Shown here: piece by piece, positions 16,237-61,496 of the stretch
How the letters are laid out: each line of letters opens with the position of its first letter
Numbering within the stretch: the first letter of the stretch is position 1
NCBI GenBank assembly: GCA_902761575.1
Contig: CACWKU010000001.1
Location: forward strand, 22,435-86,434
DNA length: 64,000 nucleotides
Direction of reading: 5' to 3'
Origin: an uncultured bacterium
GTDB taxonomy: Bacteria; Verrucomicrobiota; Kiritimatiellia; RFP12; UBA3636
Made by a program: the position numbers and the translations under genes
Notes under the pieces: generated by a model
Database searches by the model: none
What the model was told of the DNA's origin: nothing
The model's input: the letters and a program-made list of their open reading frames with translations, nothing else

Positions 16237-17158
16237 CCCGAAGCGGGAACCCGGCCGACTCGCGCAGGAGCGCGGTGATGCGCGCGGAGACGGCGTCCTC
16301 CGGCGCGCGGAGGCGCAGGACGCGCGCGTTGCCCGCCGGATCGGGCGCGAAGGGCGTGGAGAGGTCCGGCGCCACGCGGACGCGCCCCGGCTCGCCAAGC
16401 CCGTAGCACTCGTTCTCGCCGTGGACCGCGAGGTCGACGGTGACCGGGTCCCAGCTCGGGCGCGTCATCCCGGGGCCGCAGTAGCGCCGGAACGCCTCGG
16501 CGAGCGGATGCGCGGCGCAGTCCGGCGGCAGGCCGGAGAGGTCGGTGACCACCTTCTCGCCGCTCTCGAACCCGACGAAGACGATCGGGCCGTCCCACGC
16601 GTCGAGGAAGCGGCGCGTGGCCTCCGGGCGTTCGCGGACGTTGGTCTCCGCGTAGCCCGCGCACCGTCCGAAGCCGCCCGCCATCGCCCAGACGGCGCGC
16701 ACCTTGCGTCGGAAGAGCGCGGGGTCCTCCGCGAGGACCTCGTCGAGCGTGTTGAAGAAGCCGATCGAGATCACGTCGACGGAGCCGTCCGCCGCCTCCG
16801 CGAAGACGCGGCGGTAGAGCTCGCGCGCGGCGCACGACGTGGCGGGGTGCGCACCCCGCCACAATGCCGCGAGCGCGGCGAGATACGGGGACTCGTTGCC
16901 GCTCGGCGGAGGCGGGTCGTCCGTGACGCCGACGGGGACGTCCTGCAGGCCCCACGCGGCGAGGACCGCCTTCACCGCGGGCGCGGCGAGCGGCGTCTCG
17001 ACGTTGCACGAGACGCCGCCGATGCGGAACGCGCCGGCGTGGCGGCGCGACTCGGCGCAAAGCAGCGCGAGCGCGGCGACGTCGTCGACGTCGCCGCAGA
17101 AGTCCGTCTCGAGAACGACGGTCGCGCCCGTGCGGGCGGCGAGGGGCTCGGGCGTCAT
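16226..17158 (-). CDS. Inosine-uridine-preferring nucleoside hydrolase (IUNH)-like protein (310 aa)
   Basis: C-terminal part of track ORF 16226..19435, trimmed to the ATG at 17158. That ATG overlaps the upstream stop as ATGA. The N-terminal Asp cluster VVLETDFCGDVDDVAAL is IUNH-like. No signal peptide. Contains the 24-nt palindrome at 16839-16862. Its 3' end overlaps the convergent gene 14533..16236 by 11 nt. Confidence 0.75.
   Translation of the reverse strand: MTPEPLAARTGATVVLETDFCGDVDDVAALALLCAESRRHAGAFRIGGVSCNVETPLAAPAVKAVLAAWGLQDVPVGVTDDPPPPSGNESPYLAALAALWRGAHPATSCAARELYRRVFAEAADGSVDVISIGFFNTLDEVLAEDPALFRRKVRAVWAMAGGFGRCAGYAETNVRERPEATRRFLDAWDGPIVFVGFESGEKVVTDLSGLPPDCAAHPLAEAFRRYCGPGMTRPSWDPVTVDLAVHGENECYGLGEPGRVRVAPDLSTPFAPDPAGNARVLRLRAPEDAVSARITALLRESAGFPLRATC
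16839..16862. repeat. Perfect 24-nt palindrome GTGGCGGGGTGCGCACCCCGCCAC inside the nucleoside-hydrolase-like CDS
   Basis: Read directly from the sequence. It encodes ..LWRGAHPATS.. in the gene frame. Confidence 0.9.
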
Positions 17159-19524
17159 CGCAGAACCAGGATGGTCGGGGGGTCGCCGTAGTGTTCGAAG
17201 CACCCGACGTCGGGGCCGCCGCCGAAGTCGCGTGGCCGCTTGCCGAGGAAGTCGCGCGCGCCGGCCATCCAGTCGCAGAGAACGCCGGCATCCCTCAGCG
17301 GCGACTTCGCGCGGGGAGACCAGTCTCCCTTGTCCGGCTTCGCGAAACGGACGCCCCTTTCGTCGCAGGCCGCCGTGATCCGCGCGGACGCGCCCGACGG
17401 ATCGCGCGCGAGGACCTCCGCGACGGCGTTGGCGCTTCCGCCCTCGACGACCGTGCTCGCGATCCGGACCACGTTGGTCAGGGACGGGCAGTTGTCGACG
17501 GGGGACTCGCACCAGTAGAGGCCGGGCGCGCCCCTGTACTTCCGGCCCCAGGGCCAGCCGTCGGTCTTCGGGAGGTTGTCCCAGAACACGCAGTTGGTGA
17601 TCGCGGGGACCGACGAGTCGTTCTGGAAGTAGACGAGGCCTCCGACGTTGCGGACGAAGGTGCAGTTCGCGAGGGCGGGGAAGCTGCCCAGCTTGAACGG
17701 GCACCGGTTGTCGACGAAGAGCGTGCTGGTGATCTTGGCGACGGACGCGTCCGGCGACCGGAAGAAGGACGGCAGTTGGCTTCCGCTCGACGAGGTGTTG
17801 ATCGTCGTCGCGGTGTCCGAAACCACGCATCGGTCGAGCCGGGCGCGGCCGTAGAAGAGCCCGGCGTTCGAGGAATCGAGCACGTTGCCGGCGATCGTGC
17901 AGGCAACGAGGCGGACGGCTCCGTTCGGGCAGTCGCCGTTGTTGGAGCCGAACGTCATTCCGGCCAGCCCGCCGCCGTCCGAGCGGAGCGTCTGGTTCCG
18001 GAAGACGCAGTTCGTAACGGTCGTGTGGCTCGTCGCGGCGACGGATGTCTGCCCCCGGCTGGCGGTCCGCTCGACGTAGCAGGCGTCGAACGCCGAATTC
18101 TCGATCCAGAGCGAACCGTAGATCGCGCCGCCTGCGTTCCACATATCGGTCCAGGACGTTCCGCACCGGACGAACTCGCATCCGTCGACGATGCCGTATT
18201 CGGACCGCGCGTCGAAGTCCGTGTGCGTTTCGTCGGGGGCGTAGATCGCGCCGCCGAAGCGCGCCGTGCAGTCGACGAAATCGCAGTCGCGGATGGTCGC
18301 CGTGTTGACCGCCGCCGAACCGTCGAGCCGGATCGCGCCGCCCTTGTCCGAGCTGCCGTTCTTGAAGGTGACGCCCCGGACGGTGAAGCCGGACGCGGAC
18401 ACCCGGAGCAGGTTGGCGGACGAATCGCCGTCGAGGATCGTCTTGCCCTTGCCCTCGCGCGAGACGACCGTCAGGTTCGCCGCGGTGACGTCGATCGCCG
18501 ACGTCGCCGTGTAGATGCCGCGGTTCACGACGACCGTCGCGCCGTTGGTCGCGCCCTCGATCTCCGCCTTGAGCCGGGCGAAGTCCCCGACCGTCGCGAA
18601 GATCTCGAAGGAAACGCCCGCCGGCAGAGAGGTCTTGCCCTTGTCGCTTTCGATCGTGACCGTGCAGACGTAGTCGCCGTCGGCGAGGTTCGGGATGGCG
18701 AACTCGGCCGTCTCGCCGGTCTGGTCGCGGAGGACAGTCACCGGATCGCCGCCGTTCAGGCTGTACGAGACGGAATACTTCGTCGCGGGGTTCCCGTCCA
18801 CGTCCGTGCCCATCCCGACGTCCGCGAGCGCGATGGTCGCCGTCCGGCGGAGCGTGGAGGCGGACAGGGAGCCGATCGTCGGATGGGAGCCCGAGATGAT
18901 CTTGCGGACCTGGACCGCGTTGAAGAAGGCGGGTGCGCCCTCGTATTCGAACGTGAACGACTCGGTCCCGTTCTCGGCCGTGAACGTTCCGACGAGGGAG
19001 CCTCCGTACTGGAAGAAATAGCCTTGCGGCCGGGCGGAACACGAATGGTCCGGAGCCCAGACTTCGGTGCCGGCGGCGCCGGTGTTGGAGACGTCCGTGC
19101 AGTGGAGAATCAACTGCACGGCGTAGGTGGCTCCCGGCGTGAGCTTCTTGAGCTGAAGTTCGTGGTCGCCGACGCTCGACCACCATCCGTGCGACAGCAG
19201 GTTGGAGTAGGCGCCCGAAACACCCGGGGGAGGGACGTTCTCGTCCCCGTGCCAATGCCACTCGCCCGAAAAGCCGAAATCGGGGCATCCGGCGACGTCC
19301 TGCCGCCCGACGAACGGAACGCCGTTGACCGCGTTGGTGACGGCGGCGCCGCCGTTCGCCTGGCACCAGGCGTACGCAAGCGTTCCGTTCGTGATGATCG
19401 AATTGCCGGACTGGCTCATCGTGACCTCCTGCCACGTGACGTACGTCGCGGCGCCGGCGACGGGAACGAACAGAGATCCCGAGAGGATGGCGATCAAAAG
19501 TGTCAGAAGGGTCTTGGATTTCAT
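17155..19524 (-). CDS. Secreted right-handed beta-helix (pectate-lyase-fold) protein with an N-terminal 'QVR' module and an Ig-like repeat (789 aa)
   Basis: Track ORF 17155..20343 trimmed to the ATG at 19524 (MKSKTLLTLLIAILSGSLFVPVAGA signal peptide). The module ends FFNAVQVRKI. Parallel beta-helix style repeats are present (..VRGVTFKNG.., ..IRDCDFVDC.., ..VTNCVFRN.., ..ITNCVFWDN..). The C-terminus ..DVGCFEH.. resembles the repeat ends in 27174..33467. Confidence 0.85.
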   Translation of the reverse strand: MKSKTLLTLLIAILSGSLFVPVAGAATYVTWQEVTMSQSGNSIITNGTLAYAWCQANGGAAVTNAVNGVPFVGRQDVAGCPDFGFSGEWHWHGDENVPPPGVSGAYSNLLSHGWWSSVGDHELQLKKLTPGATYAVQLILHCTDVSNTGAAGTEVWAPDHSCSARPQGYFFQYGGSLVGTFTAENGTESFTFEYEGAPAFFNAVQVRKIISGSHPTIGSLSASTLRRTATIALADVGMGTDVDGNPATKYSVSYSLNGGDPVTVLRDQTGETAEFAIPNLADGDYVCTVTIESDKGKTSLPAGVSFEIFATVGDFARLKAEIEGATNGATVVVNRGIYTATSAIDVTAANLTVVSREGKGKTILDGDSSANLLRVSASGFTVRGVTFKNGSSDKGGAIRLDGSAAVNTATIRDCDFVDCTARFGGAIYAPDETHTDFDARSEYGIVDGCEFVRCGTSWTDMWNAGGAIYGSLWIENSAFDACYVERTASRGQTSVAATSHTTVTNCVFRNQTLRSDGGGLAGMTFGSNNGDCPNGAVRLVACTIAGNVLDSSNAGLFYGRARLDRCVVSDTATTINTSSSGSQLPSFFRSPDASVAKITSTLFVDNRCPFKLGSFPALANCTFVRNVGGLVYFQNDSSVPAITNCVFWDNLPKTDGWPWGRKYRGAPGLYWCESPVDNCPSLTNVVRIASTVVEGGSANAVAEVLARDPSGASARITAACDERGVRFAKPDKGDWSPRAKSPLRDAGVLCDWMAGARDFLGKRPRDFGGGPDVGCFEHYGDPPTILVLR

Positions 19525-19591: not shown

Positions 19592-19647
19592 ATCATAGTG
19601 CATCCGGCCTTGCGACGGTAGGGACGGCGCGGCCAAAAATGGGTAAA
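19592..19647 (-). promoter_or_regulatory. Tripartite upstream cassette copy 4 (putative promoter of 17155..19524 and 16226..17158)
   Basis: TTTACC (19647-19642), N18, CCCTAC (19623-19618), N20, TATGAT (19597-19592). Confidence 0.55.
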
Positions 19648-27105: not shown

Positions 27106-27142
27106 CCCTCGCGTGTCGTGGTGGCACCCCGCCACGCGAGGG
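27106..27142 (-). terminator. Hairpin after the stop of the giant gene; its loop carries a degenerate half of the palindrome
   Basis: CCCTCGCGTG-N17-CACGCGAGGG (10-bp stem). The loop and right arm contain GCACCCCGCCAC (27125-27136). It lies between the stop at 27174 and cassette copy 6. Confidence 0.4.
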
Positions 27143-27173: not shown

Positions 27174-30100
27174 CTATTCCGGCATGCGCACCCAGACCCG
27201 GAAGAAGCGGCTGTCGGCGTTCGGCGCGGTCCAGACCTCGTTCGTGAGGAAGGGCTTGCCCTCTATGGTGTAGACGCGCTTGGCGCCGAGGTCCGGATGC
27301 CAGGAGATCTCCGGCTCGTCGCCGGGCACGAGGATGTCCGCGAGGAAGCGCGAGAGCGCATCGAGCGGGTTCAGGCCCGCGACGAACTCCTCCCAGAGCG
27401 TGTCGCCCTTGCCCGACGGCAGCGGCTTCAGCGCCTCGTAGCCGCTGGTCGACCCGATGCCGTGGAAGTCGATCCACGCCTCCCATTCGCCCTTCGTCGC
27501 CTCCGGAATCCACTGCACGCAGTCGAGGAAGCCGCGGTCTTCGCCGTCGGCCATTCCGGAGTCCTTCGCGTAGGTCCAGCGCAGCGTGTGCGCCCCCTCC
27601 CCCTCGACGGCGAACGACGCCCGCTCCCACTTCGTCCGCCCGTCGAGACGCGCCTTCTCGACGCCGTCGACGAGAAACGCAAGGTGGTCCCAGTCGCGAT
27701 AGCCGCTGTCGTCGCGCTCGCACGAGGCGCGCCAGCGGAAATCGATCTGTCCCGGTCCTTCGACCGTCGTCTCGATCCAGCTTTCGCCGTTGTCGCCGGG
27801 CGACGCGGAGGTCGCGCGGTGGACGCCGTCCGCCGAGTCCTCGGTCGCCTCGGGAACCCACGGATCGTCGTCCCCGGTCGTGAAGGCGAGCTGCGGCATG
27901 TTGACCGCCGTCGCGAGCCCGAGCGTCGAGCCGAGCGCCGGAACGCCCGCCCCCGAACGGCCCGCGAGGTTCTCCGAGACAACGAAGTAGTAGTAGGTCT
28001 TCCCGGGCTCGACCGTCACGTCGGTCCACGAAAGGCCCTCCGTCGTCCCGAGCTCCTCCGCCGCCGCGAGGTCGGGCGACGTCCCGCGGCAGACGCGGTA
28101 GGAGTCCGCCGTCTCCACGGCGTCCCACGAGAGCGCGATGCCCGCGCCTTCCTGCGCCGCCGCGAGGCCGTCCGGCGCCTGCGCCACGTAGACATGGACG
28201 ATCGTCGCGGTCGCGACCTCGCTCGCCCAATCGCCGCGCACCACGGCGATCGCCTTCACCGTCGTCGTCTCAAGGATCGAAAACTTGACGGAAGTCGCGC
28301 TGTTCGTCGCCGGGTCGGAACCGTCCACCGTGTGGTAGATCTTCGCGTCCGGATCGGTGCACGTGAGCATCACCGACTGCGAGTTCTTGTTCGCGAACTG
28401 CGTTCCGTCCGGCGGATCGATGACGGGCGTCGCCGGTACGCCGTATTCGTAGCAGCCCATGTCCACCGCCGCGTGCGCGACGCGCGGATTGCCGGCGAGG
28501 TCCGTCTTCCCCGCCGCCCACGACGTGTCGCCCGCGTCGACGCACGGCGCCACCGCGCGCACGCGGTAGTCGCCGTTCGCCGCGTCGAAGAAGAGGTCCG
28601 CCGCCGACGCGACGATATTGCTAGTCCCGACGGTTTCCGTGTCGAGGCAGGAATAGTCGACGTTGCACGTCGCGGCATGGACTTCGGTTCCGACCGGTAC
28701 ATTCTCGACGAAATTGCCGACAATGACGCAGTTTGTCGCGACGCATTTTCCGATGGCGCATGCCCCCAGACTAATGGCGTTCGTATTCGCGGCAACGGTG
28801 CAGTTCGCAAGCGAACATTTGTAGGCGGCACTGGGTGCACAACCGCTGTGATCGTCGTTCCAGACGACATTGCCGGCAATCAGGCAGTTCTCCATGTCGG
28901 CTTCGTACGCCGCGCCCCATTTCCGGCTGACATTACCGGTCAAAATGCAGTTCTTCAATGTCGCAGTCAGAACGGCCGACCCCCCACCCGAACAGTATCC
29001 ATTACGGAACATGAATCCTTCCATTGTCACGAGCCCGCGGAGGGTTTCGTAGTAATAGGCGCTCGGATCCGTCGGCTGATACGCCGCCATCTGGATACAG
29101 CGCCGGAGCCCTTGACCGTCGATGATCGTCGTCGCGGGACCGTTTGCGCTTCGAATGCGCAGGTGTGCGCTTTTCCAGTTCACGATGGAACTGGAAGCCT
29201 GCGCATCGCCCGTATAGACGCCGTCCGCCACGACGATTTCGTCGCCGTCCGCCGCCCAGTCGATGGCATTCTGGATGGTCGCCTTCGCCGTTTCCCAGGA
29301 GAGGCCGTCGTTCGCATCGTCGCCCGTCGCCTGCGCGACGTATTGCGTCGCCGCCGCGTAGTGGGTGGCCCATTCGTAGCAACCCATGTCGGTCCCGACG
29401 CCGATCCACCGCGAGTGGCCATCGAGGTCGGTTCCAAGCTTGGCCTCGGTTGTCAGTCCGCCCGCGTCGATGCACGGCGAGCCCGCCGTGAGCCGGTAGT
29501 CGCCGTTCGCCGCGTCGACGAAGAGCGGATCGGCGTCGATGTTGCCCGAGCCGGAGACGGCCGAACCGAAGCAGGAATAGGTCGCGGTGGAATTGTAGAT
29601 ATCGTTTGCGGCTCCGCTCGTGTAGGCGTTTCCGTAGACGATGCAGGATTCGAGCGTGCAGAAGTCGCAACCGCCGCCGCCGGGCTTGCTGGAAGAACCG
29701 TAGACGGCCCGGTTGTCCACAATCGTGCACCGGACCGCATCGCAGCTGCCAAGTCCGCCGCCCGTCGTGGCGGCGACGATGTTGTTCGCCAGATTGTCCG
29801 CAATCAAGCAATCTTCCAGCCGGGAATTCATGGCGCCGCCCCCGCCGGCGGACGAAACGTTGTTGGAAACGATGCATCGAAAGGCAATGCTGCATTGAAG
29901 TCCCCCGCCGTAGCCGCGGAACGAAGGGTCGTCGTCTTTCCCGGCGTAGTTCCCCGTCACGATGCACGCTTCCAGAATTCCGCCGCGAACGCCGGCTCCG
30001 TGGTCGTTCCGGCCGTTCCGCAACGTAAAGCCGACAAGCGTCGTTTTCACGGCATCGGTCCTTTCGGCACCTAGCGTCGCGCAGCGGTTCGTGCCGCCGC

Positions 30101-33100
30101 CGTCGACGATGGTCTTCTCCGCGCCTTCGACGCTGCGGATGACGATGTCCTTGTTCCTTGCGACGAACGGTTCGTAGACGCCGTTCGTGACGAGGACCGT
30201 GTTGCCCGCGACGGTGCGGTCCGCCGCGTTCTGGATCGTCCGCAGCGCGTCGTCCCACGAACGCCCCGTGTTCTCGTCATCGCCGCGTTCCGCGTCGACG
30301 TACCAGACCGTTTCCGCGGGTTCCGGATCTTCGCAGACAAGACGGAAGCCGACGTCGCTGTATTTGGTAGAAGCGCCGTCTTGGATGCGAAAGGCCGAAC
30401 GGCAACGATTGGCCGCGAACTTCCATCCGCCGCCGCGCCTCGAACGATGCGTTCCGGAACCGGCCCCCGCGGGATTGACCGCGGGTCCGCCGTCCAATTC
30501 GGCATACCAGTCGAGGCACCATTCGTAAACGTTGCCGTGCATGTCGAAAAGGCCCCATCGGTTCGGAAGATAGGACCCGACCGCTGCATGGTGGTCGTTC
30601 CCCCGGTTGTCGACGTATCGTCCGAGTTCCGCCAGATTGGCGCTGTAGCCCTCCGCTGATTCCAGATTCTTTCCAGAGTTCAAGGAGGATTCTGTCCCCG
30701 CGCGGCAGGCATATTCCCACTGCGCTTCGGTCGGGAGGTCGAAGCCGTCCAGGCCCGTCTTCGCGCGGAGGACGCCGAGGAAGCTCGAAGCGTCCACGGC
30801 GCTGCTCGCCGGGAAGTTCGTTCCCGCGTCGTCGCCGCGGATCATGTCGTAGGAAACCGTCTCGATCGGGTGGGTTCCTCCGAGATTCTGCGCCACGTTC
30901 GTTCCCATCACGAGTTCCCATTGCTTCTGCGTCACCTCGAAAACGCCGGCGTAGAAGCCGCGCGAGAGCGTGACGCGGTGGAGCGTCTCGTTGTCCTGAC
31001 GGCCTAGCTCGTCCTCCGGGCTGCCCATCCAGAACGAGCCCTCCGGCACATTGCGGAGGACGAGTTTCGTCGTCTTGTATTCCTCGGTCCAGCCGCCCGC
31101 GGGAACGTCGGAGAGGTAGGAGACCGGATAGGAGGTCGCGTTCGTTCCACCCGAGAGGTCGACGACGAGGAAGCGGGTCTCGTCGACCGGATCGATGCCG
31201 AACGGATAGACGAACGTGCCCTCGTAGTTGTTCTTGCCGGTCACGCGGACGCCCGCCGTGCCGACGTCCACGTTGTCGACGTATTCGACGTCGTAGTTCT
31301 CCGCGCCGAGGATGTCCGGCCAGCCGTCGCGGATGTGGACCTCGGGCGTCTTCGGCGTTCCGTCCCACACCTGGTCCGGAACGACGCACATCATCGAGGG
31401 GTCGATCCGCTTCTTCCGGACGGTGAGCGTCGCGGCGTTCGTGACGGCGGGATAGCCCGGCGCCGTCGCGACGACCCAGACCGGATGCTCGCCCGCGTCC
31501 GTGAACGACGGCGCCTCCGCCGTGAACGGGCCTTCCGCGGAAAGACCGTAGAGAATCGTCGCCTCCGCGCCGGGGAAGTCCGCCGTCACGGAGAGCGCGT
31601 TCGGGCCGCCGTTGTAGACGACATCCGTCCCCTCGACCTTGAGCCACGACTCCGGTCCCGCCTCGTAGGCGCCGATGTCCACGTGCGCGCCCTGCACGCG
31701 CGCGTTGCCCCAGAGGTCGGAGTCGCTCACCGCGTTCGCGTCGCTTCCCGCGTCGATGCAGGGCGACGAACCGAGCAGGCGGAAGTCGCCGGCAGCCTCG
31801 TCCGCGAACTTCGGGAACGCGACGATGTTCCCTTCGCCCTCCTTCAGCGACGTGAGGCAGCAGTGGTCGAGCGTGCACGCCGCCACGTCCGCTGCGATGC
31901 CGCCCACCGTGTTCCCCGTCACGATGCAGTTGTAGACCTTGCAGTCGTAGAGCCCTCCGGCGGGAGCCCCGGCAACGGCCTCGTTCCCGATGACCGTGCA
32001 GTTATAGAGGTCGCACTGGTAGGCACCTCCCGCGGCGGCGGTTCCGTCGGACGACAAAGACGCGTTTCCGAGAATCAGGCAGTTTACGAGTTTACAGCCG
32101 CCCGCGCCGCCGACCGTTTTCTCCGCATTCAGGCATTTCGTGGTCGTGCAATCCTGGATGACGCAGTTTTCCACGATACCGTGCGAAACTCCTCCTAGGT
32201 TCGTGAACAAGCCGTTTGTAATCGTAAAACCGACGAGCGTCGCAACGCGATCCGCCGTCCTTCCGTCGAGAGAAGCCGAAAGTTTTGCGCAACGGTATTT
32301 GCCTTCTCCGTCGAGAATCGTCTTTTCCGGTCCGTTCACACTTTTGATCAGGAGCTTGCCGCTGGTAGCATGGCAGTCGAGAACCATGTTTCCCGAGACC
32401 CTTTTGTATGTTCCGTCGTTCACGAGAACCGTGTCCCCGTCGATCGCCTCGTCCACCGTGGATTGGATGGACTTCTTCGCCGCGCTCCAGGAGAGACCGT
32501 CGTTCGAGTCGTTTCCGGAGGCGGCGTCCACGTGCCACGTCACGGGTTCACGGTATTCGTAGCAGCCGGCGTCCACGATTCCGTTCACGATGCGCCGACT
32601 TCCGCGAAGATCGTAATTCGTCGGAACCAATTCGTTCGTACCCGCGTCGACGCACGGCGATTCCGGGCGGAGACGGTAGACGCCGGCCGCGGCGTCGACG
32701 AACGGCGATTCGGAAAGGACGCCGTTGTTCGAGCCAGGAAGAACAACTTCGGCAAACGAGTTTGTGGCGGAAAAACTGGAGGAAACAAGCGATGCGGATC
32801 CTGTTTCGTTGCCGAACACGACGCAGTTGGCCAGGACGGAATCCGAAAACACGGCGCCAGATCCGTCAAAACCGCCATTGTTCGAAAACGTGCAATTGAA
32901 AGCGGTCGAATTCCGGACGAGGCATTGCAAAGCCCTGTTTCCGACGACCAGGCAATTGTCCATTCGGACTGTGTGGAGGACGACTTTGGAGTTCAAAGAC
33001 GTTCCCTTCACAATGCACTTCCTCAGTTTGGTCCAAGCTACTCCTCCGGTGTCTTGATGCAATCCGTTCTGCAACGTGAATCCGTCGAAAAGCAGGCAAT

Positions 33101-33467
33101 GGTCCATCCAGTCATTTTGATGGGCCGTGTTCGTTCCCTTGGCGACGCGGCGCTGACCATCGGCGTCGATGATCGTGACGAGAGGGCCGTCCGTGCTGCG
33201 GACCGTAGCAGAACGCCCATTGGAATTATAGACGGCACCAACGGAGTCCGCCGTCTCCTTGTAGGTTCCCGGGCCGACGAGGATCAAGTCGCCGTCGGAG
33301 CAGGAAGTCACCGCCTTTTGGATCGTTTTGAAGGGCTTTGCGGAAGTGCCTTCGTTCGAGTCGGAACCCGAAGAGGCGGAAACGTACCAGTTCTTCGCGA
33401 ACCCGGAGGGCGCGAAACCGGCGAGAAGAAGAAGGAACGAGACTGCGGGGAGGCGCGAGCGGAGCAT
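27174..33467 (-). CDS. Giant secreted protein (2097 aa): several parallel beta-helix units, an embedded FGE-sulfatase (SUMF1-type) domain, a chitobiase-C-like domain, an FN3-like domain, and a C-terminal 'FFR' tail
   Basis: Track ORF. Signal peptide MLRSRLPAVSFLLLLAGFAPSGFA. Beta-helix units each end ..SPC(I/V)DAG..D(A/I/M)G(C/A)YE(Y/A/W). FGE-sulfatase motifs: HRVTLSRGFYAGVFEVTQKQW, WEYACRAG, DMHGNVYEWCLDWY, RGGGW. The tail is ..WEEFVAGLNPLDALSRF..RFFRVWVRMPE. The 5' third (about 32000-33400) is visibly less GC-rich. Confidence 0.9.
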   Translation of the reverse strand: MLRSRLPAVSFLLLLAGFAPSGFAKNWYVSASSGSDSNEGTSAKPFKTIQKAVTSCSDGDLILVGPGTYKETADSVGAVYNSNGRSATVRSTDGPLVTIIDADGQRRVAKGTNTAHQNDWMDHCLLFDGFTLQNGLHQDTGGVAWTKLRKCIVKGTSLNSKVVLHTVRMDNCLVVGNRALQCLVRNSTAFNCTFSNNGGFDGSGAVFSDSVLANCVVFGNETGSASLVSSSFSATNSFAEVVLPGSNNGVLSESPFVDAAAGVYRLRPESPCVDAGTNELVPTNYDLRGSRRIVNGIVDAGCYEYREPVTWHVDAASGNDSNDGLSWSAAKKSIQSTVDEAIDGDTVLVNDGTYKRVSGNMVLDCHATSGKLLIKSVNGPEKTILDGEGKYRCAKLSASLDGRTADRVATLVGFTITNGLFTNLGGVSHGIVENCVIQDCTTTKCLNAEKTVGGAGGCKLVNCLILGNASLSSDGTAAAGGAYQCDLYNCTVIGNEAVAGAPAGGLYDCKVYNCIVTGNTVGGIAADVAACTLDHCCLTSLKEGEGNIVAFPKFADEAAGDFRLLGSSPCIDAGSDANAVSDSDLWGNARVQGAHVDIGAYEAGPESWLKVEGTDVVYNGGPNALSVTADFPGAEATILYGLSAEGPFTAEAPSFTDAGEHPVWVVATAPGYPAVTNAATLTVRKKRIDPSMMCVVPDQVWDGTPKTPEVHIRDGWPDILGAENYDVEYVDNVDVGTAGVRVTGKNNYEGTFVYPFGIDPVDETRFLVVDLSGGTNATSYPVSYLSDVPAGGWTEEYKTTKLVLRNVPEGSFWMGSPEDELGRQDNETLHRVTLSRGFYAGVFEVTQKQWELVMGTNVAQNLGGTHPIETVSYDMIRGDDAGTNFPASSAVDASSFLGVLRAKTGLDGFDLPTEAQWEYACRAGTESSLNSGKNLESAEGYSANLAELGRYVDNRGNDHHAAVGSYLPNRWGLFDMHGNVYEWCLDWYAELDGGPAVNPAGAGSGTHRSRRGGGWKFAANRCRSAFRIQDGASTKYSDVGFRLVCEDPEPAETVWYVDAERGDDENTGRSWDDALRTIQNAADRTVAGNTVLVTNGVYEPFVARNKDIVIRSVEGAEKTIVDGGGTNRCATLGAERTDAVKTTLVGFTLRNGRNDHGAGVRGGILEACIVTGNYAGKDDDPSFRGYGGGLQCSIAFRCIVSNNVSSAGGGGAMNSRLEDCLIADNLANNIVAATTGGGLGSCDAVRCTIVDNRAVYGSSSKPGGGGCDFCTLESCIVYGNAYTSGAANDIYNSTATYSCFGSAVSGSGNIDADPLFVDAANGDYRLTAGSPCIDAGGLTTEAKLGTDLDGHSRWIGVGTDMGCYEWATHYAAATQYVAQATGDDANDGLSWETAKATIQNAIDWAADGDEIVVADGVYTGDAQASSSIVNWKSAHLRIRSANGPATTIIDGQGLRRCIQMAAYQPTDPSAYYYETLRGLVTMEGFMFRNGYCSGGGSAVLTATLKNCILTGNVSRKWGAAYEADMENCLIAGNVVWNDDHSGCAPSAAYKCSLANCTVAANTNAISLGACAIGKCVATNCVIVGNFVENVPVGTEVHAATCNVDYSCLDTETVGTSNIVASAADLFFDAANGDYRVRAVAPCVDAGDTSWAAGKTDLAGNPRVAHAAVDMGCYEYGVPATPVIDPPDGTQFANKNSQSVMLTCTDPDAKIYHTVDGSDPATNSATSVKFSILETTTVKAIAVVRGDWASEVATATIVHVYVAQAPDGLAAAQEGAGIALSWDAVETADSYRVCRGTSPDLAAAEELGTTEGLSWTDVTVEPGKTYYYFVVSENLAGRSGAGVPALGSTLGLATAVNMPQLAFTTGDDDPWVPEATEDSADGVHRATSASPGDNGESWIETTVEGPGQIDFRWRASCERDDSGYRDWDHLAFLVDGVEKARLDGRTKWERASFAVEGEGAHTLRWTYAKDSGMADGEDRGFLDCVQWIPEATKGEWEAWIDFHGIGSTSGYEALKPLPSGKGDTLWEEFVAGLNPLDALSRFLADILVPGDEPEISWHPDLGAKRVYTIEGKPFLTNEVWTAPNADSRFFRVWVRMPE

Positions 33468-33990: not shown

Positions 33991-34096
33991 TTACCACGAT
34001 TGCAATATTTTTTTTCTATTGTTGAAATATCTGCCGCGCGTCCAGTTGCTTTCCGAATCAAGGGCGAATCGGACGCGAAGGGCGCGAGGGCGCGTC

Positions 34097-34121
34097 GTGG
34101 CGGGGTGCGACACCCCGCCAC
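34097..34121 (-). terminator. GC palindrome hairpin 8 nt after the stop of the GH36-like gene (REP-like element copy; possible terminator or mRNA stabiliser)
   Basis: GTGGCGGGGTG-cga-CACCCCGCCAC (11-bp stem). No U tract follows. Confidence 0.4.
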
Positions 34122-34128
34122 GGCATCC

Positions 34129-35737: not shown

Positions 35738-36388
35738 TTACTTGACGGTAATGACCGCCGGCTTCCCCGCCGGTTCGTCCGACGGAAGCTCGCGCACCTG
35801 GATGGCGTTGATCAAAGCCTGGCCGCTGTACGAGATCGTGAACTCCTCCGTCGTGGCTTCGGCGGTGAACTGGCAGATCAGCGAACCGCCGTATTCCCAT
35901 CCGGTTCCGGCGAACTTGGCAACCGTCGTTCGGTCCGGCGCGGTCGCCGACTGCGTCGTGTAGTCGTTGCGGAAGGCGACCATCTGGACCAGATACCGCT
36001 TCCCGGATTCCAGATTCTTCAACGCGATCGGCCGGTCCTTGCCGTTTGCCCACCAGCCATTCGACAGCAGATCCTTGTAATCGCCCGACTCGGTGTCGGA
36101 GGGAGGCGACGAAACGGCGTTGCCGGCTCCGCCCGAGGCTTCCCAGACGACGCAGTCCGCCGTATTGACGATTTTGTCGCCGACACCGGCGAACGAAACG
36201 CCGTTGACCGTGTAGTTTCCGCGGGCGTAGGCGTACTTGAGCGTTCCGTCCGTGCGGATCGACGTGCTGCTCGCCGTCAGTGGCGTAGCAGACCACGTGA
36301 CGTCCGTTGCCGCCCCGGCGGGGGCGGCGACGAGCGCGGCGGCGGCCGCGAGGGCGAGGGCGGCGGTTTTCCTGACGATGCGATTCAT
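35738..36388 (-). CDS. Free-standing secreted 'QVR' module protein (216 aa)
   Basis: C-terminal part of track ORF 35738..40231, trimmed to the ATG at 36388 (MNRIVRKTAALALAAAAALVAAPAGA signal peptide). The whole mature protein is one copy of the recurrent module (..SSTSIRTDGTLKYAYARGNYTVNGVSF..GKRYLVQMVAF..LINAIQVRELPS). Confidence 0.85.
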   Translation of the reverse strand: MNRIVRKTAALALAAAAALVAAPAGAATDVTWSATPLTASSTSIRTDGTLKYAYARGNYTVNGVSFAGVGDKIVNTADCVVWEASGGAGNAVSSPPSDTESGDYKDLLSNGWWANGKDRPIALKNLESGKRYLVQMVAFRNDYTTQSATAPDRTTVAKFAGTGWEYGGSLICQFTAEATTEEFTISYSGQALINAIQVRELPSDEPAGKPAVITVK

Positions 36389-36476
36389 GGGACGTCTCCT
36401 TGTCCGGGACGGGGTTGTCGTCGGCCGGTTCTCCCGGCCGCCTCCGACGGAGGCCGTGGCGGTGCCGACGTCCCGT

Positions 36477-36533: not shown

Positions 36534-36549
36534 GCGCCCAGCCCTTCGC

Positions 36550-36573: not shown

Positions 36574-36597
36574 GGCGGCGAACGCCACAAGGGGCGG

Positions 36598-41203: not shown

Positions 41204-41260
41204 AGTATACCCCACGGACCGCTCGCGAAGAAAGGGCGAAATCGGGCAAAGACGGGTAAA
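41204..41260 (-). promoter_or_regulatory. Tripartite upstream cassette copy 8 (putative promoter of 39967..41121 and 36598..39927)
   Basis: TTTACC (41260-41255), N18, CCCTTT (41236-41231), N21, TATACT (41209-41204). Confidence 0.55.
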
Positions 41261-46497: not shown

Positions 46498-46554
46498 ATC
46501 CTACCACACCGTCCCGAGGGGCGGCTAGGTACGCCGGGGCCTGAAAGCGGTAAA
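46498..46554 (-). promoter_or_regulatory. Tripartite upstream cassette copy 9 (putative promoter of 43645..46467)
   Basis: TTTACC (46554-46549), N18, ACCTAG (46530-46525), N21, TAGGAT (46503-46498). Confidence 0.55.
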
Positions 46555-46566: not shown

Positions 46567-47484
46567 TCAGACGACGAACGCCTTCTCCCAGCGGCGCGCG
46601 GTGTGGTCGCGGAAGAAGACGCCGTAGGACGCGCCGCCGTACCACTCGACGACCGCCGAGCGGATCGCGTTGCCGCGGCGGTTCTCGAGCGAGGCGACGT
46701 CGAACTGCGTGACCGCGGAGCCGTCGATCCCGGAGATCTGGCGCAGGCAGTCCTTGCCGCCCCACTGGAAGTCTCCGACGTGGCAGTGGCCGTAGAAGTG
46801 CGCGACGACGTTCTCCGGCAGCGGCAGCAGCGTCCCCATCAGGTCCGAGGCGCGGTTGCCGCCCGGGAAGGCGTAGTGGCTCATCGTGAAGACGGGCTTG
46901 CCGAGCGCGGCGATCGCCGCTCGCGCCCGCTCCGCGGCTCCGGGGTCGGGGTAGTCGATCCGGTTCTCGCCGTCGGTCGCGCCGCCGTGGACGCAGAACC
47001 ACGAGCCGTCCGGCGCGGCGTGGTCGGAGAAGATCGCGAGCGCCAGGTCGCCGAAGTCCGCGACGAGCAGCCAGTCGCGGACGGAGGGCGTCGTGTGCCA
47101 CTGCGTCTCCCGCAGGACGCGCTCCCGCATCGGGATCGTGACGCGCCCGCTTCCGCGGCCGCCGCCCCACCGGTGGTAGTCGAACTCGTGGTTGCCCATC
47201 GCGTACCAGACCGGCGCGTCGACCCGCGCGAGGGCCTCGACCTGCATGTCGGCCATCTCGCGCAGGTGCGCCGGATCGGTCCCCTCGGTCGTGTCGCCGA
47301 GGTAGCACACGGCGTCCACGGGAAGGCGCAGCGAGAGGAAGTCCTCCACGCCCGCGTGCATGCAGCGGCGGGCGTTCGCCGGATCGCGCTGCTGCAGGTC
47401 GGAGATGACCCAGAGGCGCCGGCGCGCGGGACGGAGCAGGCCCGCGCGGAAGTCCGCGGGCGGCGTGGCGGGGTGCGCGCTCAT
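46567..47484 (-). CDS. Calcineurin-like metallophosphoesterase (305 aa)
   Basis: C-terminal part of track ORF 46567..47955, trimmed to the ATG at 47484, which overlaps the upstream stop as ATGA. Motifs: ISDLQ, YLGDTTEG, MGNHEF, GHCHVGD. Confidence 0.8.
   Translation of the reverse strand: MSAHPATPPADFRAGLLRPARRRLWVISDLQQRDPANARRCMHAGVEDFLSLRLPVDAVCYLGDTTEGTDPAHLREMADMQVEALARVDAPVWYAMGNHEFDYHRWGGGRGSGRVTIPMRERVLRETQWHTTPSVRDWLLVADFGDLALAIFSDHAAPDGSWFCVHGGATDGENRIDYPDPGAAERARAAIAALGKPVFTMSHYAFPGGNRASDLMGTLLPLPENVVAHFYGHCHVGDFQWGGKDCLRQISGIDGSAVTQFDVASLENRRGNAIRSAVVEWYGGASYGVFFRDHTARRWEKAFVV
47465..47476. repeat. Half-copy of the palindrome (GTGGCGGGGTGC) at the 5' end of the metallophosphoesterase CDS
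   Basis: The sense strand reads ATG AGC GCG CAC CCC GCC ACG (MSAHPAT), echoing the GAHPAT peptide of the full intragenic copy. Confidence 0.6.
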
Positions 47485-50348: not shown

Positions 50349-50362
50349 TCCTAGCTCCGCGC

Positions 50363-50389
50363 CCGCCCCGTCGCTTCGCGCCGGGGCGG
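50363..50389. terminator. Hairpin between the convergent ATPase and SBP-permease genes
   Basis: CCGCCCCG-N11-CGGGGCGG (8-bp GC stem). No clear U tract. Confidence 0.3.
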
Positions 50390-50409
50390 AGACGGTCGGA
50401 CGCGGCGCG

Positions 50410-53105: not shown

Positions 53106-53161
53106 ATGCTATCACCTCGCGCGCGTTGCGGGTAGGGACGGACCGCCCAAAAAGCGGTAAA
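53106..53161 (-). promoter_or_regulatory. Tripartite upstream cassette copy 10 (putative promoter of the SBP-permease fusion gene)
   Basis: TTTACC (53161-53156), N18, CCCTAC (53137-53132), N20, TAGCAT (53111-53106). Confidence 0.55.
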
Positions 53162-55833: not shown

Positions 55834-55839
55834 GGACCC

Positions 55840-57573: not shown

Positions 57574-59790
57574 TCAGCGAACGTCGATCCGCGCGGAGGC
57601 GCGGAGGGAGGCGGAGAGCTCGAATTCGCCCGCCTCGAAGCGGCGGGTGCCGTCGGGCTGCATCGCGGCGAGATCCTTGCGCGAGAGCGACAGCTTCACC
57701 GTCTTCGTCTCGCCCGGCTTCAGCGAGACCTTCTCGAATCCGACGACGCGCCGCACCGGCTGGGTGCTCGTGCTCTCGAGGTCCGAGAGATACCAGATCA
57801 CGGTCTCCGCGCCGGCGCGCCTGCCGGCGTTCCTCACCGTCACGGACGCCTCGACGCGCCCGCCGCGGCGCACGGCGGCCTTCGCCTTCCCGTATTCGAA
57901 CGTCGTGTAGGAGAGGCCGTAGCCGAACGGCAGCCACGGGTCGTTCTCGTGCGGACAGTCGAGGTAGTCGAAGAGGTTCTCGCGGCTGCGCGGCTGGGCG
58001 TTGTAGAACACCGGGATCTGCCCGACGGCGCGCGGGAAGGTCATCGCGAGGCGGCCGGAGGGGTTCGCGGCGCCGGTGACGAGCTCCCACGCGGCCTGGG
58101 CGGCGCGCGAGCCGCCCTGCCAGAGGTAGAGGATCGCGTCGAGCTTCGCGGCGGTCTCGGAAAACGCGAGCGGACGTCCCGCGGCGACGAGGCCGACGAG
58201 CGGCCGGCCGGTCTCCGCGAGGGCGTCGACGAGCGCCTCCTGCGCGGGCGAGAGGCGGATGTCGCGGCGCGACTTGTATTCGCCCGAGAGCCAGCCCGGC
58301 TCGCCGAGCGCGACGACGACGACGTCCGCGGCGCGCGCGGCGCGGACCGCCTTCGCGATCGCGGCGCGGTCCGGCGGCAGGCCCGGATCGAGGATCGAGC
58401 CCTCGACGAAGTCGACCGTACGCAGCCGCGGCGCGCCCTCGGGCGGCAGCGCGCAGCCCGGCGCGTAGTCGATCCTCGCGTTCGGGAAGAAGCGCGCGGC
58501 CTCGTCCCGGAGCGACGGCGTCTCCTCGTGGTTCTTCGCGCACATCGCCGCCCACGTGCCGACGAGCGCGGGGCAGTCGTCCGCCGCCGGGCCGACGAGC
58601 GCGAGGCGCTTCACCTTCCTCGGATCGAGCGGGAGCAGCCCCCCCTCGTTCTTGAGCAGGACGGCGCAGCCGCGCGCGCACTCGGCCGCGAGGTCGAGGT
58701 CGGCGGGCAGGCGGCAGGTCCTCTCGCGCGGGAGCTCGGGGACGTAGGGATGCTCGAAGAGGCCGCACTCGAACTTGACGCGCAGCACGCGCTCCACGGC
58801 GCGGTCGAGCACGTGCATCGGAAGGCGGCCGGCCTTGACGAGGGCCGGGATGTTGCGGAAGACGTCGTCCGACATGTCCATGTCGTTGCCGGCCGTGAGC
58901 GCGGCGAGCGTCTGGACGGCCGGGTCGGAGCTGTAATGCTGGATGCGCAGCTGCGAGACGGCGCCCCAGTCGGAGACGACGAAGCCGTCGAAGCCCCATT
59001 CGCCGCGGAGGATGTCCGTCAGCGTCTCCCGGTTCGCGACGGCGGGCGTGCCGTCGATGCAGTTGAAGGAGCTCATGAGCGTCCGCGCGCCGGCGCGCAC
59101 GCCCGCCTCGAACGGCGGCAGATACCACTCGCGCAGCGCCCGCGCCGAGATCTCCGTGTAGGAGTAGTCGCGCCCGCCCTCGCTCGCGCTGTAGCCGACG
59201 AAGTGCTTGAGGCAGGCGACGACGCGGCCCGGCTTCCGCAGGTCCGCGCGGCGGCGCCCCTGGTAGCCGCGGACGGCGGCCGCGGCGAAGACGCCGTTCG
59301 TGAACGGGTCCTCGCCGTAGCCCTCGACGTTGCGGCCCCAGCGCGGATCGTGCCCGACCTCGACCATCGGGGAGAAGGTCCAGTCGACGCCGCCGTCCGT
59401 CCAGCACTCGCGCGCCGCGACTCGGCACGCCCTCTCCGTGAGCGACGGGTCGAACGAGCAGGACTGCGCGAGCGGGACGGGGAAGCCCGTGCGCCAGCCG
59501 TGGATGACGTCGTAGCCCCAGAGGATCGGGATGCCGAGGCGCGTCCCCTCGACGGCCATGCGCTGGAACGCGTTGCGCGCGGCGGCGCCGCCGGTGAAGG
59601 AGAGGACGGAGCCGATCGTCGGGTCGAACGGATGGTCGGGCCCGACGTTGTTCGGATTGGTGTCGCGGCCGATCGGGTTCTGGATCAGCTGCGCGGCCTT
59701 CTCCTCGAGCGTCATGCGGCGGAGCAGGTCGCGCACGCGCGCCTCGGCGGGCTTCTTCGGATCCTTGTACGGGGGGAGTTTCGTTTTCAT
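57574..59790 (-). CDS. bglX: GH3 beta-glucosidase/beta-hexosidase (BglX-like, 738 aa)
   Basis: C-terminal part of track ORF 57574..61119, trimmed to the ATG at 59790 (MKTKLPPYKDPKKPAEARVRDLLRRMTLEEKAAQL). Motifs GYDVIHG, KHFVGY, GFVVSDWGA (nucleophile Asp context). Its start overlaps the upstream stop as ATGA. The symbol is a family-level guess. Confidence 0.9.
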   Translation of the reverse strand: MKTKLPPYKDPKKPAEARVRDLLRRMTLEEKAAQLIQNPIGRDTNPNNVGPDHPFDPTIGSVLSFTGGAAARNAFQRMAVEGTRLGIPILWGYDVIHGWRTGFPVPLAQSCSFDPSLTERACRVAARECWTDGGVDWTFSPMVEVGHDPRWGRNVEGYGEDPFTNGVFAAAAVRGYQGRRRADLRKPGRVVACLKHFVGYSASEGGRDYSYTEISARALREWYLPPFEAGVRAGARTLMSSFNCIDGTPAVANRETLTDILRGEWGFDGFVVSDWGAVSQLRIQHYSSDPAVQTLAALTAGNDMDMSDDVFRNIPALVKAGRLPMHVLDRAVERVLRVKFECGLFEHPYVPELPRERTCRLPADLDLAAECARGCAVLLKNEGGLLPLDPRKVKRLALVGPAADDCPALVGTWAAMCAKNHEETPSLRDEAARFFPNARIDYAPGCALPPEGAPRLRTVDFVEGSILDPGLPPDRAAIAKAVRAARAADVVVVALGEPGWLSGEYKSRRDIRLSPAQEALVDALAETGRPLVGLVAAGRPLAFSETAAKLDAILYLWQGGSRAAQAAWELVTGAANPSGRLAMTFPRAVGQIPVFYNAQPRSRENLFDYLDCPHENDPWLPFGYGLSYTTFEYGKAKAAVRRGGRVEASVTVRNAGRRAGAETVIWYLSDLESTSTQPVRRVVGFEKVSLKPGETKTVKLSLSRKDLAAMQPDGTRRFEAGEFELSASLRASARIDVR

Positions 59791-61496
59791 GGTGTGGTGT
59801 ACCGGGAACTTGATGAGCGGGAAGCGGAAACATCCGGCGTGGCGCCGTCGGCGCGGAGGCGCAGGGCGAGCCCGCCCTCCGGGGGCTCCTCGACGATCGC
59901 CTCGACGCGACCGAGCCCGGCCGCGGCGTGGAAGGCGAGGACGGCCGCGTCGAGAATCCCGGAGACCTCGGGGTCGAGGCGCAGCCCGAACTTCGCCGCA
60001 AAGCCCGCGAGCGCGTTCGCCGTGCGGACCTGCGCCGCGAGGCGCGGCATGTCCGCGCGCAGCGCGAGGAGCGCGGCGGGGTGCGCACCCCGCCACGCCG
60101 CCACGACCTGGCCGACGGTCTCGCCGCTCCCCTCCCCCGCCCCGCCGGTCAGCGCGTTCCACGCGCCCCGGCCGAGGCCGAGGTCGAGCCGACCCGCGGT
60201 AGCGTCCTCGGAGACGAACGCGCAGTCCGCCTCCGGCGTCTGGCCGAGCAGCTCGAACTTCTTCGCGCGGACGAGCCGCGTGGCGGGGTCCGGCGCCGAG
60301 TCGCGAAGGCGCAGGTCCACGTCCGCCTTGAGCGCCTCGAACCACGGCGGCCACCACTGCGCGAGCGGCGCCGCGGGATCGGCGGGAAGCGAAAGCGCGA
60401 GCGACGGCACCTCGAGGATCGCCAGGTGCGTCGCGTTCGGACGGTCCGCCGCCCACGCGACCGCCGTGCCTTCGCCGAAGGGCGGCAGGCCCGAGTCGGC
60501 CGGGATCCACCCCTTCGCGACCGGCGCGGCGACGAGGAGGAACGCCGCGTCCGCCGGCGCACGCGCCGCGGCGCCCGCGAGGGGCGCGGCGGCGCCGAGC
60601 GACGGGTCGGGGAGGCTGGACCGTATCCCGGAGCCGACCATGGCGTCGAGCTCGATGCCCGGGCGCCTGAACGACGCGAGGTCGAGCGTGAAGGGATTGC
60701 AGTCGAACGCGTAGGGACCGAGGTCGTAGGGCTGCACCCAGATGCGGTGGCGCTTGCGGATCTCGCGCCAGGGCTCCGGTTCGCGGTCGGCCTGGACCGG
60801 GCCGCCTGCCTTGAAGCATCCGGCGAGACGCTGCCAGGAGTCCGTCTTCCCCGCGACGCGCGCCGCGAGCTCGGCTACGCGGTCCGGGTCCTGCGCGAGG
60901 ACGGCGACGAGGACGCCGTCGACGATATCGAGGCCGAGGACGATGCCATTGTCGCGCAGCTCGCGGGCGTGCGGGAACTCCATGTAGCGCGTGCCCTTCG
61001 CGGTGGTGCGCAGCGGCCCGAGGCCGGGCACCCACCTGATGCGCCAGAGCAGCTCCAGCGCGCGCGCCTTCCAGCCGACGTAGCTCGCGCCCGCGAGGTA
61101 GCCGCCGAGCCCGGCGCATTCGCCCTCCTCCGGGACGACGCCGACGACCGAGTTCTCGCCCGTGAGCCAGAAGAGCGTCCAGAAGACGCCGGCGTTGTCG
61201 TCGATCGCGTCCTCCGGATCGCCGCCGAGCGCGCGCAGCGCGTACTGGAACGACGGGTTGCGCAGGAGTGCGCGGTCCTCCATCGCGAGGTTGCGCACGT
61301 AGGCCGCGGCGGCGGTCCGCTCCGGCAGCGCATAGAAGAGCTCCGCCCGGTCCATCGGATACCAGAAGAACCAGAGCGCGACGGCGGCGATCGCGCAGCG
61401 ACGCAGCGCCTTGCGGCGCCGCCGCGCCCAGGCGCGCGGCCCCGTGGCGGGGTCCGCCCCCGCGGCGAGAAATTCGTCGTCGTCCATGTCGCCCAT
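59787..61496 (-). CDS. Hypothetical membrane-anchored protein (569 aa), translationally coupled to the GH3 gene
   Basis: Track ORF. N-terminal R-rich segment, then a TM helix (CAIAAVALWFFWY). Balanced composition with many W/F/Y, and no family recognised. Carries a near-perfect copy of the 24-nt palindrome (60073-60096, WRGAHPA). The alternative start ATG at 61487 may be the real (leaderless) start. Confidence 0.6.
   Translation of the reverse strand: MGDMDDDEFLAAGADPATGPRAWARRRRKALRRCAIAAVALWFFWYPMDRAELFYALPERTAAAAYVRNLAMEDRALLRNPSFQYALRALGGDPEDAIDDNAGVFWTLFWLTGENSVVGVVPEEGECAGLGGYLAGASYVGWKARALELLWRIRWVPGLGPLRTTAKGTRYMEFPHARELRDNGIVLGLDIVDGVLVAVLAQDPDRVAELAARVAGKTDSWQRLAGCFKAGGPVQADREPEPWREIRKRHRIWVQPYDLGPYAFDCNPFTLDLASFRRPGIELDAMVGSGIRSSLPDPSLGAAAPLAGAAARAPADAAFLLVAAPVAKGWIPADSGLPPFGEGTAVAWAADRPNATHLAILEVPSLALSLPADPAAPLAQWWPPWFEALKADVDLRLRDSAPDPATRLVRAKKFELLGQTPEADCAFVSEDATAGRLDLGLGRGAWNALTGGAGEGSGETVGQVVAAWRGAHPAALLALRADMPRLAAQVRTANALAGFAAKFGLRLDPEVSGILDAAVLAFHAAAGLGRVEAIVEEPPEGGLALRLRADGATPDVSASRSSSSRYTTP
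60073..60096. repeat. Near-perfect (23/24) copy of the same palindrome inside hypothetical CDS 59787..61496
   Basis: GCGGCGGGGTGCGCACCCCGCCAC. It encodes ..AWRGAHPAAL.. in the same relative frame as the copy at 16839. Confidence 0.9.

Follow-up and report, generated by a model that had tools for sequence, protein, structure and literature searches.

A repeated DNA word in rumen Kiritimatiellae, single in genes and inverted at gene ends: uptake-sequence-like behaviour or an atypical REP family?

The palindrome and its word beside described repeat systems

DNA uptake sequences, known as DUS in Neisseriaceae and called USS, short for uptake signal sequences, in Pasteurellaceae, occur in both orientations, and their copies arise by substitution, not by insertion. 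The cyanobacterial sequence HIP1 (highly iterated palindrome 1), an 8-bp palindrome over-represented in coding as well as non-coding DNA, also probably spreads by substitution and not by transposition. Rickettsia palindromic elements (RPEs), which are much longer than 24 nt, lie in-frame within protein-coding genes and add a peptide segment that is absent from orthologs. Of uptake sequences, 34.5-65% are located in open reading frames (ORFs), where they use preferred frames and enrich the cognate peptides (PMC2817400), and about half of all uptake sequences, and more than 90% of those forming inverted repeats, are placed in terminators (bioRxiv 10.1101/2025.10.24.684340). The GTAG- or GTGG-tagged repetitive extragenic palindromic (REP) sequences of Opitutus terrae and other bacteria of the Planctomycetes-Verrucomicrobia-Chlamydiae (PVC) superphylum have been described as insertions that interrupt ORFs, many of them dimers encoding 20-30 residues; they are also reported from inside known genes, where they encode 7-8 residues such as VAGVADP, and O. 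terrae GTAG-20 is described with a GTGG variant of the tag (Di Nocera et al. 2013, PMC3733652). Here we analyze a 24-nt palindrome that recurs in a 64-kb stretch of DNA (the window, 64,000 nt in all) from a metagenome-assembled genome (MAG) of a rumen member of the Kiritimatiellae, together with the 11-nt word ACCCCGCCACG of which this palindrome is made.

The word resembles DUS and USS as a 9-12-nt sequence that is hugely over-represented and common to related species. A large share of its copies in ORFs, preferred frames and enriched cognate peptides are further features described for uptake sequences in PMC2817400, as are inverted pairs at terminator positions in bioRxiv 10.1101/2025.10.24.684340, the latter being judged here by position alone. 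Unlike DUS and USS, the word belongs to a host of another phylum (PVC) and of an anaerobic rumen lineage that is not known to be competent, is GC-rich, has a lower density (about 1 per 4-5 kb) with about half of its copies paired, and has no known receptor. With the GTAG and GTGG REPs of O. terrae and other PVC bacteria (PMC3733652) it shares the short GC palindrome, the predominant location downstream of genes and the superphylum. In contrast to O. terrae REPs, no residues are inserted, the half-word is enriched on its own, the element is symmetric, and a gene related to those of REP-associated tyrosine transposases (RAYTs) is not flanked by it. A palindromic repeat in-frame within protein-coding genes also recalls RPEs, but here the element measures 24 nt and the length of orthologs is unchanged. 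As with HIP1, a short sequence is over-represented in coding and non-coding DNA; however, HIP1 is itself a palindrome with no gene-end hairpin role, whereas the 11-mer is non-palindromic and forms a hairpin only when paired. Among the features of intrinsic terminators, the GC-rich hairpin and the position after genes are seen and the U tract is absent.

Since the G+C content of the window is 65-73% and open frames occur everywhere, genes were called by codon statistics, using third-position GC and a codon log-odds model. No Rfam family matched anywhere in the window. The copies of the palindrome and of the word, followed by their host genes, are as follows.

16839-16862, read on the minus strand: perfect palindrome, two inverted ACCCCGCCAC words with loop GCGC, inside the nucleoside-hydrolase-like gene, encoding W-R-G-A-H-P-A
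60073-60096: palindrome with 23/24 matches, inside the gene of a 569-aa protein, encoding W-R-G-A-H-P-A
34097-34121: intergenic hairpin, 11-12-bp stem and 3-5-nt loop, 7 nt past the stop of 34129-35724 (minus strand)
36550-36573: intergenic hairpin, 24 nt past the stop of 36598-39927 (minus strand), with an orthologous copy in the related loci L001 and L002
27106-27142: 12-bp outer stem around a degenerate palindrome, about 32 nt past the stop of 27174-33467 (minus strand)
47465-47476: half-copy, with a single 11-mer at 47464-47474 (minus strand), forming codons 3-7 (A-H-P-A-T) of the metallophosphoesterase, N-terminus M-S-A-H-P-A-T
4551-4561, minus strand: single 11-mer in the alpha-galactosidase gene 3204-5183 (minus strand), read D-P-A-T
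16055-16065, plus strand: single 11-mer in the esterase gene 14533-16236 (plus strand), read H-P-A-T, conserved in L043 and L001
60279-60289, minus strand: single 11-mer in the 569-aa gene, read P-D-P-A-T-R, its DNA conserved down to a 60%-identical ortholog
61443-61453, minus strand: single 11-mer near the 5' end of the 569-aa gene, read A-D-P-A-T-G
16226-17161, minus strand: host gene 1, nucleoside-hydrolase-like (Pfam IU_nuc_hydro)
59787-61496, minus strand: host gene 2, 569-aa protein with no Pfam family
46567-47484, minus strand: host gene 3, calcineurin-like metallophosphoesterase

The palindrome (GTGGCGGGGTGC|GCACCCCGCCAC, full form GTGGCGGGGTGCGCACCCCGCCAC) is perfect at 16839-16862 and matches at 23 of 24 positions at 60073-60096 and 36550-36573, while at 34097-34121 its arms are separated by one additional central base. 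As elements, these four copies were delimited at 16838-16863, 60073-60097, 36549-36574 and 34096-34122, respectively. A preliminary description of this stretch had reported these copies and variants, all of which were found again. Translation confirmed that both intragenic full copies (16839 and 60073) encode W-R-G-A-H-P-A in one and the same relative frame and that a half-copy supplies codons 3-7 of the metallophosphoesterase, the start codon of which is joined in an overlapping ATGA with the stop of the gene upstream. The hairpin at 27106-27142 had been described as holding a half-copy; its right arm is indeed exact, but it encloses more than that, namely a degenerate full copy (27113-27135) with 9/12 matches in the left arm. 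The four single words inside genes at 4551-4561, 16055-16065, 60279-60289 and 61443-61453 are additions to that earlier list. All host genes and all genes preceding hairpins are on the minus strand.

In 100 shuffles of the window, the number of palindrome matches expected by chance was 0. The 12-mer half of the palindrome was present 15 times with no more than one mismatch, compared to 0.77 expected, and the 11-mer ACCCCGCCACG 12 times in both orientations, compared to 0.08 in dinucleotide shuffles. Low-complexity words aside, ACCCCGCCACG is the commonest 11- to 13-mer of the window. The palindrome consists of two such words in inverted arrangement, and the repeated unit is the 11-nt word and not a 24-nt mobile palindrome.

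Copies inside genes

Unpaired copies of the word were recorded as 10-mers, 64 of which were present in 397 kb of Kiritimatiellae DNA. Among these, 42 were located in predicted genes, where they followed a small number of patterns: 26 were read in sense direction as D, H or N followed by P-A-T, ten in antisense as V-A-G and four in antisense as W-R-G. Unpaired copies were enriched approximately 27-fold in coding sequence, and the 10-mer as a whole was found there 44 times in sense and 32 times in antisense orientation, with 1.1 and 0.4 copies expected from codon shuffles. The same preference was visible at the level of peptides and codons: the tetrapeptide DPAT occurred 29 times versus 2.9 expected, PAT was written with CCCGCC in 54 of 78 cases versus 14 expected, and WRG was written as TGGCGGGGT (TGG CGG GGT) in 13 of 40 cases versus about 0.6% expected. 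Throughout coding sequence, the single words occur in few tolerated frames. The G that follows the 10-mer was conserved to 92-95% alike in single words in coding sequence, intergenic single words and palindrome arms. Next to the coding single words no remnant of a partner arm was detected, with 4.88 of 10 positions matching the word on the partner side compared to 4.69 in the control, so they are true singles; their origin as decayed palindromes was rejected on this comparison.

Chance or codon bias in a genome of 69% GC, with WRGAHPA and DPAT simply written in common codons, would agree with the right arm, for which GAC, CCC, GCC and ACG are all common. The left arm, however, requires GGT and CGG, which account for 3% of Gly codons and 21% of Arg codons, respectively, and is therefore written in rare codons. 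Together with the codon shuffles given above and the 12 copies observed in the window against 0.08 in dinucleotide shuffles, these codon-choice statistics exclude this explanation for practical purposes.

The origin of the in-gene copies was examined in relatives, which were reached via homologs, the exact nucleoside-hydrolase-like protein sequence not being on record. Among 84 homologs of the nucleoside-hydrolase-like protein (43-96% identity), none had a gap at WRGAHPA. The sequence A-R-W-R-G-A-D-P-A was kept down to about 65% identity, and remoter homologs carried other residues over an equal length. Similarly, an 8-residue gap was absent from all 36 homologs of the 569-aa protein, which displayed WRGAHPA at 72% identity or above, AARRDHPDA at 60% and, among the remoter ones, W-x-x-x...P-D-A. 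In a VWA/TPR protein encoded by a related genome, AQRAWRGADPATALARY aligned without a gap to the ordinary TPR pattern AQRAYRDGRYAEAAADY.

Closer examination of the codons in the nucleoside-hydrolase-like family revealed that a 52%-identical ortholog encodes W-R-G-A-D-P as TGG CGC GGA GCC GAT CCC, which is non-palindromic, and that TGG CGG GGT GCG GAC CCC GCC is common to the three with identities of 71, 81 and 96%. The left arm was lost in one ortholog lineage (CGG CGA GGC), and in the window gene a change from GAC to CAC perfects the palindrome. Intragenic palindromes were found in at least eight proteins without mutual similarity. These alignments show that the in-gene copies, full palindromes included, were built in place by point substitutions without the insertion of residues, and the substitutions involved comprised synonymous codon changes as well as some amino acid changes. 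Insertion into ORFs in the manner of RPEs, as put forward in the preliminary description, does not hold, since orthologs are gap-free at the site in three independent host families, the very outcome that had been named in advance as refuting it. At an orthologous intergenic slot the content differed and the length was near constant (64, 66 and 72 nt), with or without a hairpin, and the convergent intergenic region 50349-50409 could not be aligned to the related locus L059.

Whatever the function of the word, these genes provide a clean case in which an apparent ORF-inserted mobile palindrome was assembled in situ by substitutions, and it may be worthwhile to compare the "intragenic REPs" reported from other PVC genomes with orthologs in the same way.

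Gene-end hairpins and occurrence in relatives

A total of 67 palindromes were classified with a crude gene caller for which gene starts are approximate. Of these, 50 (approximately 75%) were intergenic and 17 were inside predicted genes. Where a palindrome had a stop-side neighbour, it was located within 60 nt of the stop in 23 of 39 cases; eight were positioned between convergent genes, and 15 of the 21 between tandem genes were closer to the stop than to the next start. The view of a multi-copy palindromic family biased to positions just after stops, already taken from the window, is borne out by these numbers. Within the pairs, the words are inverted and 3-7 nt apart and form a GC hairpin of 10-12 bp, the stems of which are stable when folded as RNA.

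The hairpin at 36550 was kept at the orthologous site in L001 and L002 despite diverged flanks, and in L105 a different sequence of similar length was present in its place. This hairpin has a stop on one side and, directly downstream on the other, a promoter-like motif that recurs in the window, TTTACCCGTTTTTGC. In the window the motif, TTTACC(C/G)nTTTTTGG, was found upstream of five minus-strand genes, compared to 0.06 copies expected, and often extends to ...CCGTCCCTAC. At the two loci compared, it was conserved in the orthologous intergenic regions of relatives, in L001, L002 and L105 for 36519 and in L104 for 19633. Its copies are:

19633-19647, minus strand: promoter-like motif
36519-36533, minus strand: promoter-like motif, directly downstream of the 36550 hairpin
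41246-41260, minus strand: promoter-like motif
46540-46554, minus strand: promoter-like motif
53147-53161, minus strand: promoter-like motif

With their location just after stops and, in one case, ahead of a promoter-like motif, the inverted pairs therefore occupy terminator or 3'-end-hairpin positions. The esterase gene (14533-16236, plus strand) and the nucleoside-hydrolase-like gene (16226-17161, minus strand) are convergent and overlap by 11 nt (16226-16236), leaving no space for a terminator between them, and transcription running on past the esterase gene would meet its nearest hairpin about 600 nt beyond, in the intragenic palindrome.

The names of homologs and a scan of GTDB representative genomes assign the window to rumen Kiritimatiellae, and the relative RUG13889 is approximately 92% identical to it over 8 kb. 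Scanning of GTDB representative genomes with the pattern GTGGCGGGGT-N3-7-ACCCCGCCAC identified at least 66 exact-stem palindromes in at least 11 Kiritimatiellae MAG species, including at least 19 copies in the loci of SRR8387717_bin.9 and at least 15 in those of RGIG1497, so the word is common to related species. RUG13889, SRR8387717_bin.9 and RGIG1497 (accessions CADBEF01, CAMVRE01 and JAFPUX01, respectively) count among the most complete genomes of the clade. Most other genomes among the matches listed had single copies resembling ordinary terminators. The word was also present in several metagenome contigs, and two lineages further removed, L110 and L111, had few copies or none. In a set of 161 kb, comprising the window and loci that were fetched via orthologs of two host genes and thus not chosen by the DNA motif, although several carry it there, 37 copies of the 10-mer were present (2.3 per 10 kb), compared to no more than five for control words of the same composition.

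Three matches in viral contigs were uninformative. One viral-classified contig of 71% GC (L112, IMGVR_UViG_3300031994_003983) contained one palindrome and three single words in 12 kb; it could represent a prophage, or else a piece of a Kiritimatiellae host that was misclassified. The stem was also observed in other phyla, there within a different composite repeat, GGAGACCTTCGGTC-N6-8-GTGGCGGGGTCnGGAGACCCCGCCAC-AAC/AGC, at loci of Gemmataceae SMAG_U9921 (L011, L018, L052, L083 and L085), Hydrogenedentota (L019, L021, L036, L039 and L084) and Planctomycetaceae (L009), sometimes in tandem arrays with a spacing of 45-90 nt. This composite repeat looks like a separate REP-like family common to Planctomycetota and Hydrogenedentota.

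A separate REP and the possible mechanisms

None of the 33 predicted window proteins is a Y1/RAYT transposase, as the preliminary description had stated. Two relatives (L107, 2024-3010; L040, 1541-2572) encode a conserved RAYT-like Y1 transposase of 328 aa, which carries the HUH motif ('HFH') as well as YxHxNP ('YVHLNPV') and scores 38 bits with Pfam Y1_Tnp and 51 bits with NCBIfam REP_Tyr_transpos, the latter below the cutoff of 80. The conserved flanks of this gene in L107 and L040, however, contained no copy of the 24-nt palindrome. Its upstream region is conserved and holds the hairpin AAAGGGGTCTGTCCCCTTAAAAAG, and one or two single words are present in its 3' coding region.

A REP of a different kind was encountered in P0023, an ortholog of the nucleoside-hydrolase-like protein that was found in two samples. 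Here an in-frame insertion of 87 nt (29 aa) is located exactly at the palindrome centre (L115, 3291-3377, and identical in L116, 970-1056), and it contains a canonical GTAG-tagged REP, GGACGCTTC-GTG-GAAGCGTCC-CTAC (the GTAGGGACG REP). A REPIN-like doublet of the same type is present in RGIG1497 (L071, 1540-1600). The insertion in P0023 is the sole RPE-like event seen and indicates that the clade has a separate, rare and genuinely inserting REP, which within the same gene family serves as a contrast case to the substitution-built palindrome. The GTAG-tagged REP leaves an indel signature that the 24-nt palindrome lacks and would be the better cognate for the RAYT-like protein, and this true REP may target the centre of the palindrome.

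We infer that whatever generates and preserves the word does so at the level of the DNA sequence. To our knowledge, DNA uptake sequence drive, as in the DUS of Neisseria and the USS of Pasteurellaceae, is the one process known for this combination, and substitution origin, preferred frames, gene-end pairs, over-representation and sharing across species are published hallmarks of DNA uptake sequences. The most likely mechanism, with a probability of roughly 0.4, would be a molecular drive of the DUS/USS type in which the inverted pairs serve as 3'-end hairpins. A competence receptor would prefer DNA fragments with ACCCCGCCACG, recombination would fix substitutions that improve the word, and inverted word pairs would be retained at gene ends, where a hairpin is useful. 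More tentatively, ACCCCGCCACG could be the uptake sequence of a rumen Kiritimatiellae clade, representing a third independent origin of self-DNA-preferring transformation and the first outside Proteobacteria, with pairs co-opted as gene-end hairpins. If so, natural competence with species-biased DNA uptake would be present in abundant uncultured rumen glycan degraders, uptake sequences would have evolved outside Neisseriaceae and Pasteurellaceae, and such competence would open a way to manipulate these bacteria genetically and provide a means of marking units of recombination.

Several observations weigh against an uptake sequence. In the DNA examined, including the approximately 33 genes of the window, competence genes did not turn up, and a literature search returned nothing on competence or uptake sequences in Kiritimatiellae or PVC bacteria. 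The density of about 1 word per 4-5 kb is several-fold below that in Neisseria or Haemophilus, where uptake sequences are spaced at about 1 per kb, and about half of the word copies are paired, a share that is much smaller in classical uptake sequences. No U tract follows the hairpins, so that termination is deduced from position only, and a consensus terminator scan did not call the hairpin sites because a T run is missing. Most of the related loci were ascertained by carrying a palindrome, the singles being unascertained, and the counts come from loci and not from whole genomes. Orthologs already share an overall codon identity of 76-85%, so that conserved palindrome codons speak no more than modestly for constraint; for this reason synonymous-site conservation was downgraded as proof of it, and all that stands out is that the rare codons GGT and CGG are retained. 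In addition, a RAYT-like gene is present in relatives, and PVC bacteria carry REP families, including a GTGG-tagged one, with many intragenic REPs in O. terrae (PMC3733652).

There are also alternatives to an uptake sequence. A family of 3'-end hairpins, acting as terminators or RNA stabilisers with a stem recognised by a host RNA- or DNA-binding factor and with in-gene copies selected or converted as internal or antisense terminators, would account for the strong bias to post-stop and convergent positions, the stable RNA stems, the hairpin conserved across orthologous intergenic regions with diverged flanks and the hairpin just upstream of a promoter-like motif. It is nevertheless rather unlikely, as it leaves about 40 true single words in coding sequence, which are unable to form a hairpin, unexplained, and neither a U tract nor an Rfam family is found; ordinary terminators, moreover, would not need a shared stem sequence. 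The word could also be the site of another DNA-tracking system, such as a Chi-like recombination hotspot, a polar sequence of the FtsK type or a site for a nucleoid protein, with the pairing at gene ends being secondary. Word-level over-representation in genes without indels and a density (about 1 per 4-5 kb) close to that of Chi in E. coli would be in line with this. On the other hand, 11 nt exceeds the length of known Chi and KOPS (FtsK-orienting polar sequence) words, a polar signal should avoid occurring in both orientations with half of its copies in inverted pairs, and the variable arm spacing of 3-7 nt argues against a dimeric protein binding double-stranded DNA, which makes such a role improbable.

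The comparison with REPs and bacterial interspersed mosaic elements (BIMEs) drawn in the preliminary description holds in part. Many copies of a 20-40-nt palindrome are present, they have variable loops and short GC-rich sequences, and most are located downstream of genes. However, a single 11-mer forms the unit, and in coding sequence it is enriched by itself and has no partner remnant. Nor is the location consistently extragenic, since genes contain 17 of the 67 palindromes and 42 of the 64 single words, and two window copies are in conserved coding sequence. Instead of a one-sided unpaired GTAG (or CGTC) tag, the symmetric element has GTGG/CCAC at both ends, which are paired with each other in the stem. 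A REP family handled by a RAYT-type Y1 transposase, carrying a degenerate GTGG tag like that of O. terrae GTAG-20 and entering genes via a replacement-type event, would have a precedent within PVC, as O. terrae is rich in GTAG REPs, has one GTGG-tagged family and shows the highest number of intragenic REPs (PMC3733652), and two relatives encode a RAYT-like protein bearing the HUH and YxHxNP motifs. This explanation, the main rival, is nonetheless unlikely, given that it leaves the true singles unaccounted for, that comparison with orthologs revealed no indel at any of the three intragenic sites examined (3/3), that the RAYT-like gene is unflanked by the palindrome in either genome, and that a separate, canonical GTAG-tagged REP of the clade inserts as an 87-nt indel. 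Overall, the element fits best as a case of uptake-sequence-like behaviour in a new phylum, or otherwise as an atypical REP.

Two further observations concern other parts of the window. The region 35738-36597 has a weak coding signal, and its sole ORF (35738-36388, 216 aa, no Pfam family) is located between the promoter-like motif and a melibiase-like gene and displays 89% nucleotide identity in L105. Very large GDSL-lipase/Ig-domain proteins are encoded at 3-2975 and 5249-10888, and the internal 12-mers CAAGGGCAAGAC and GTCGGGATGGTC, with five copies each, probably stem from repeated Ig-like domains.

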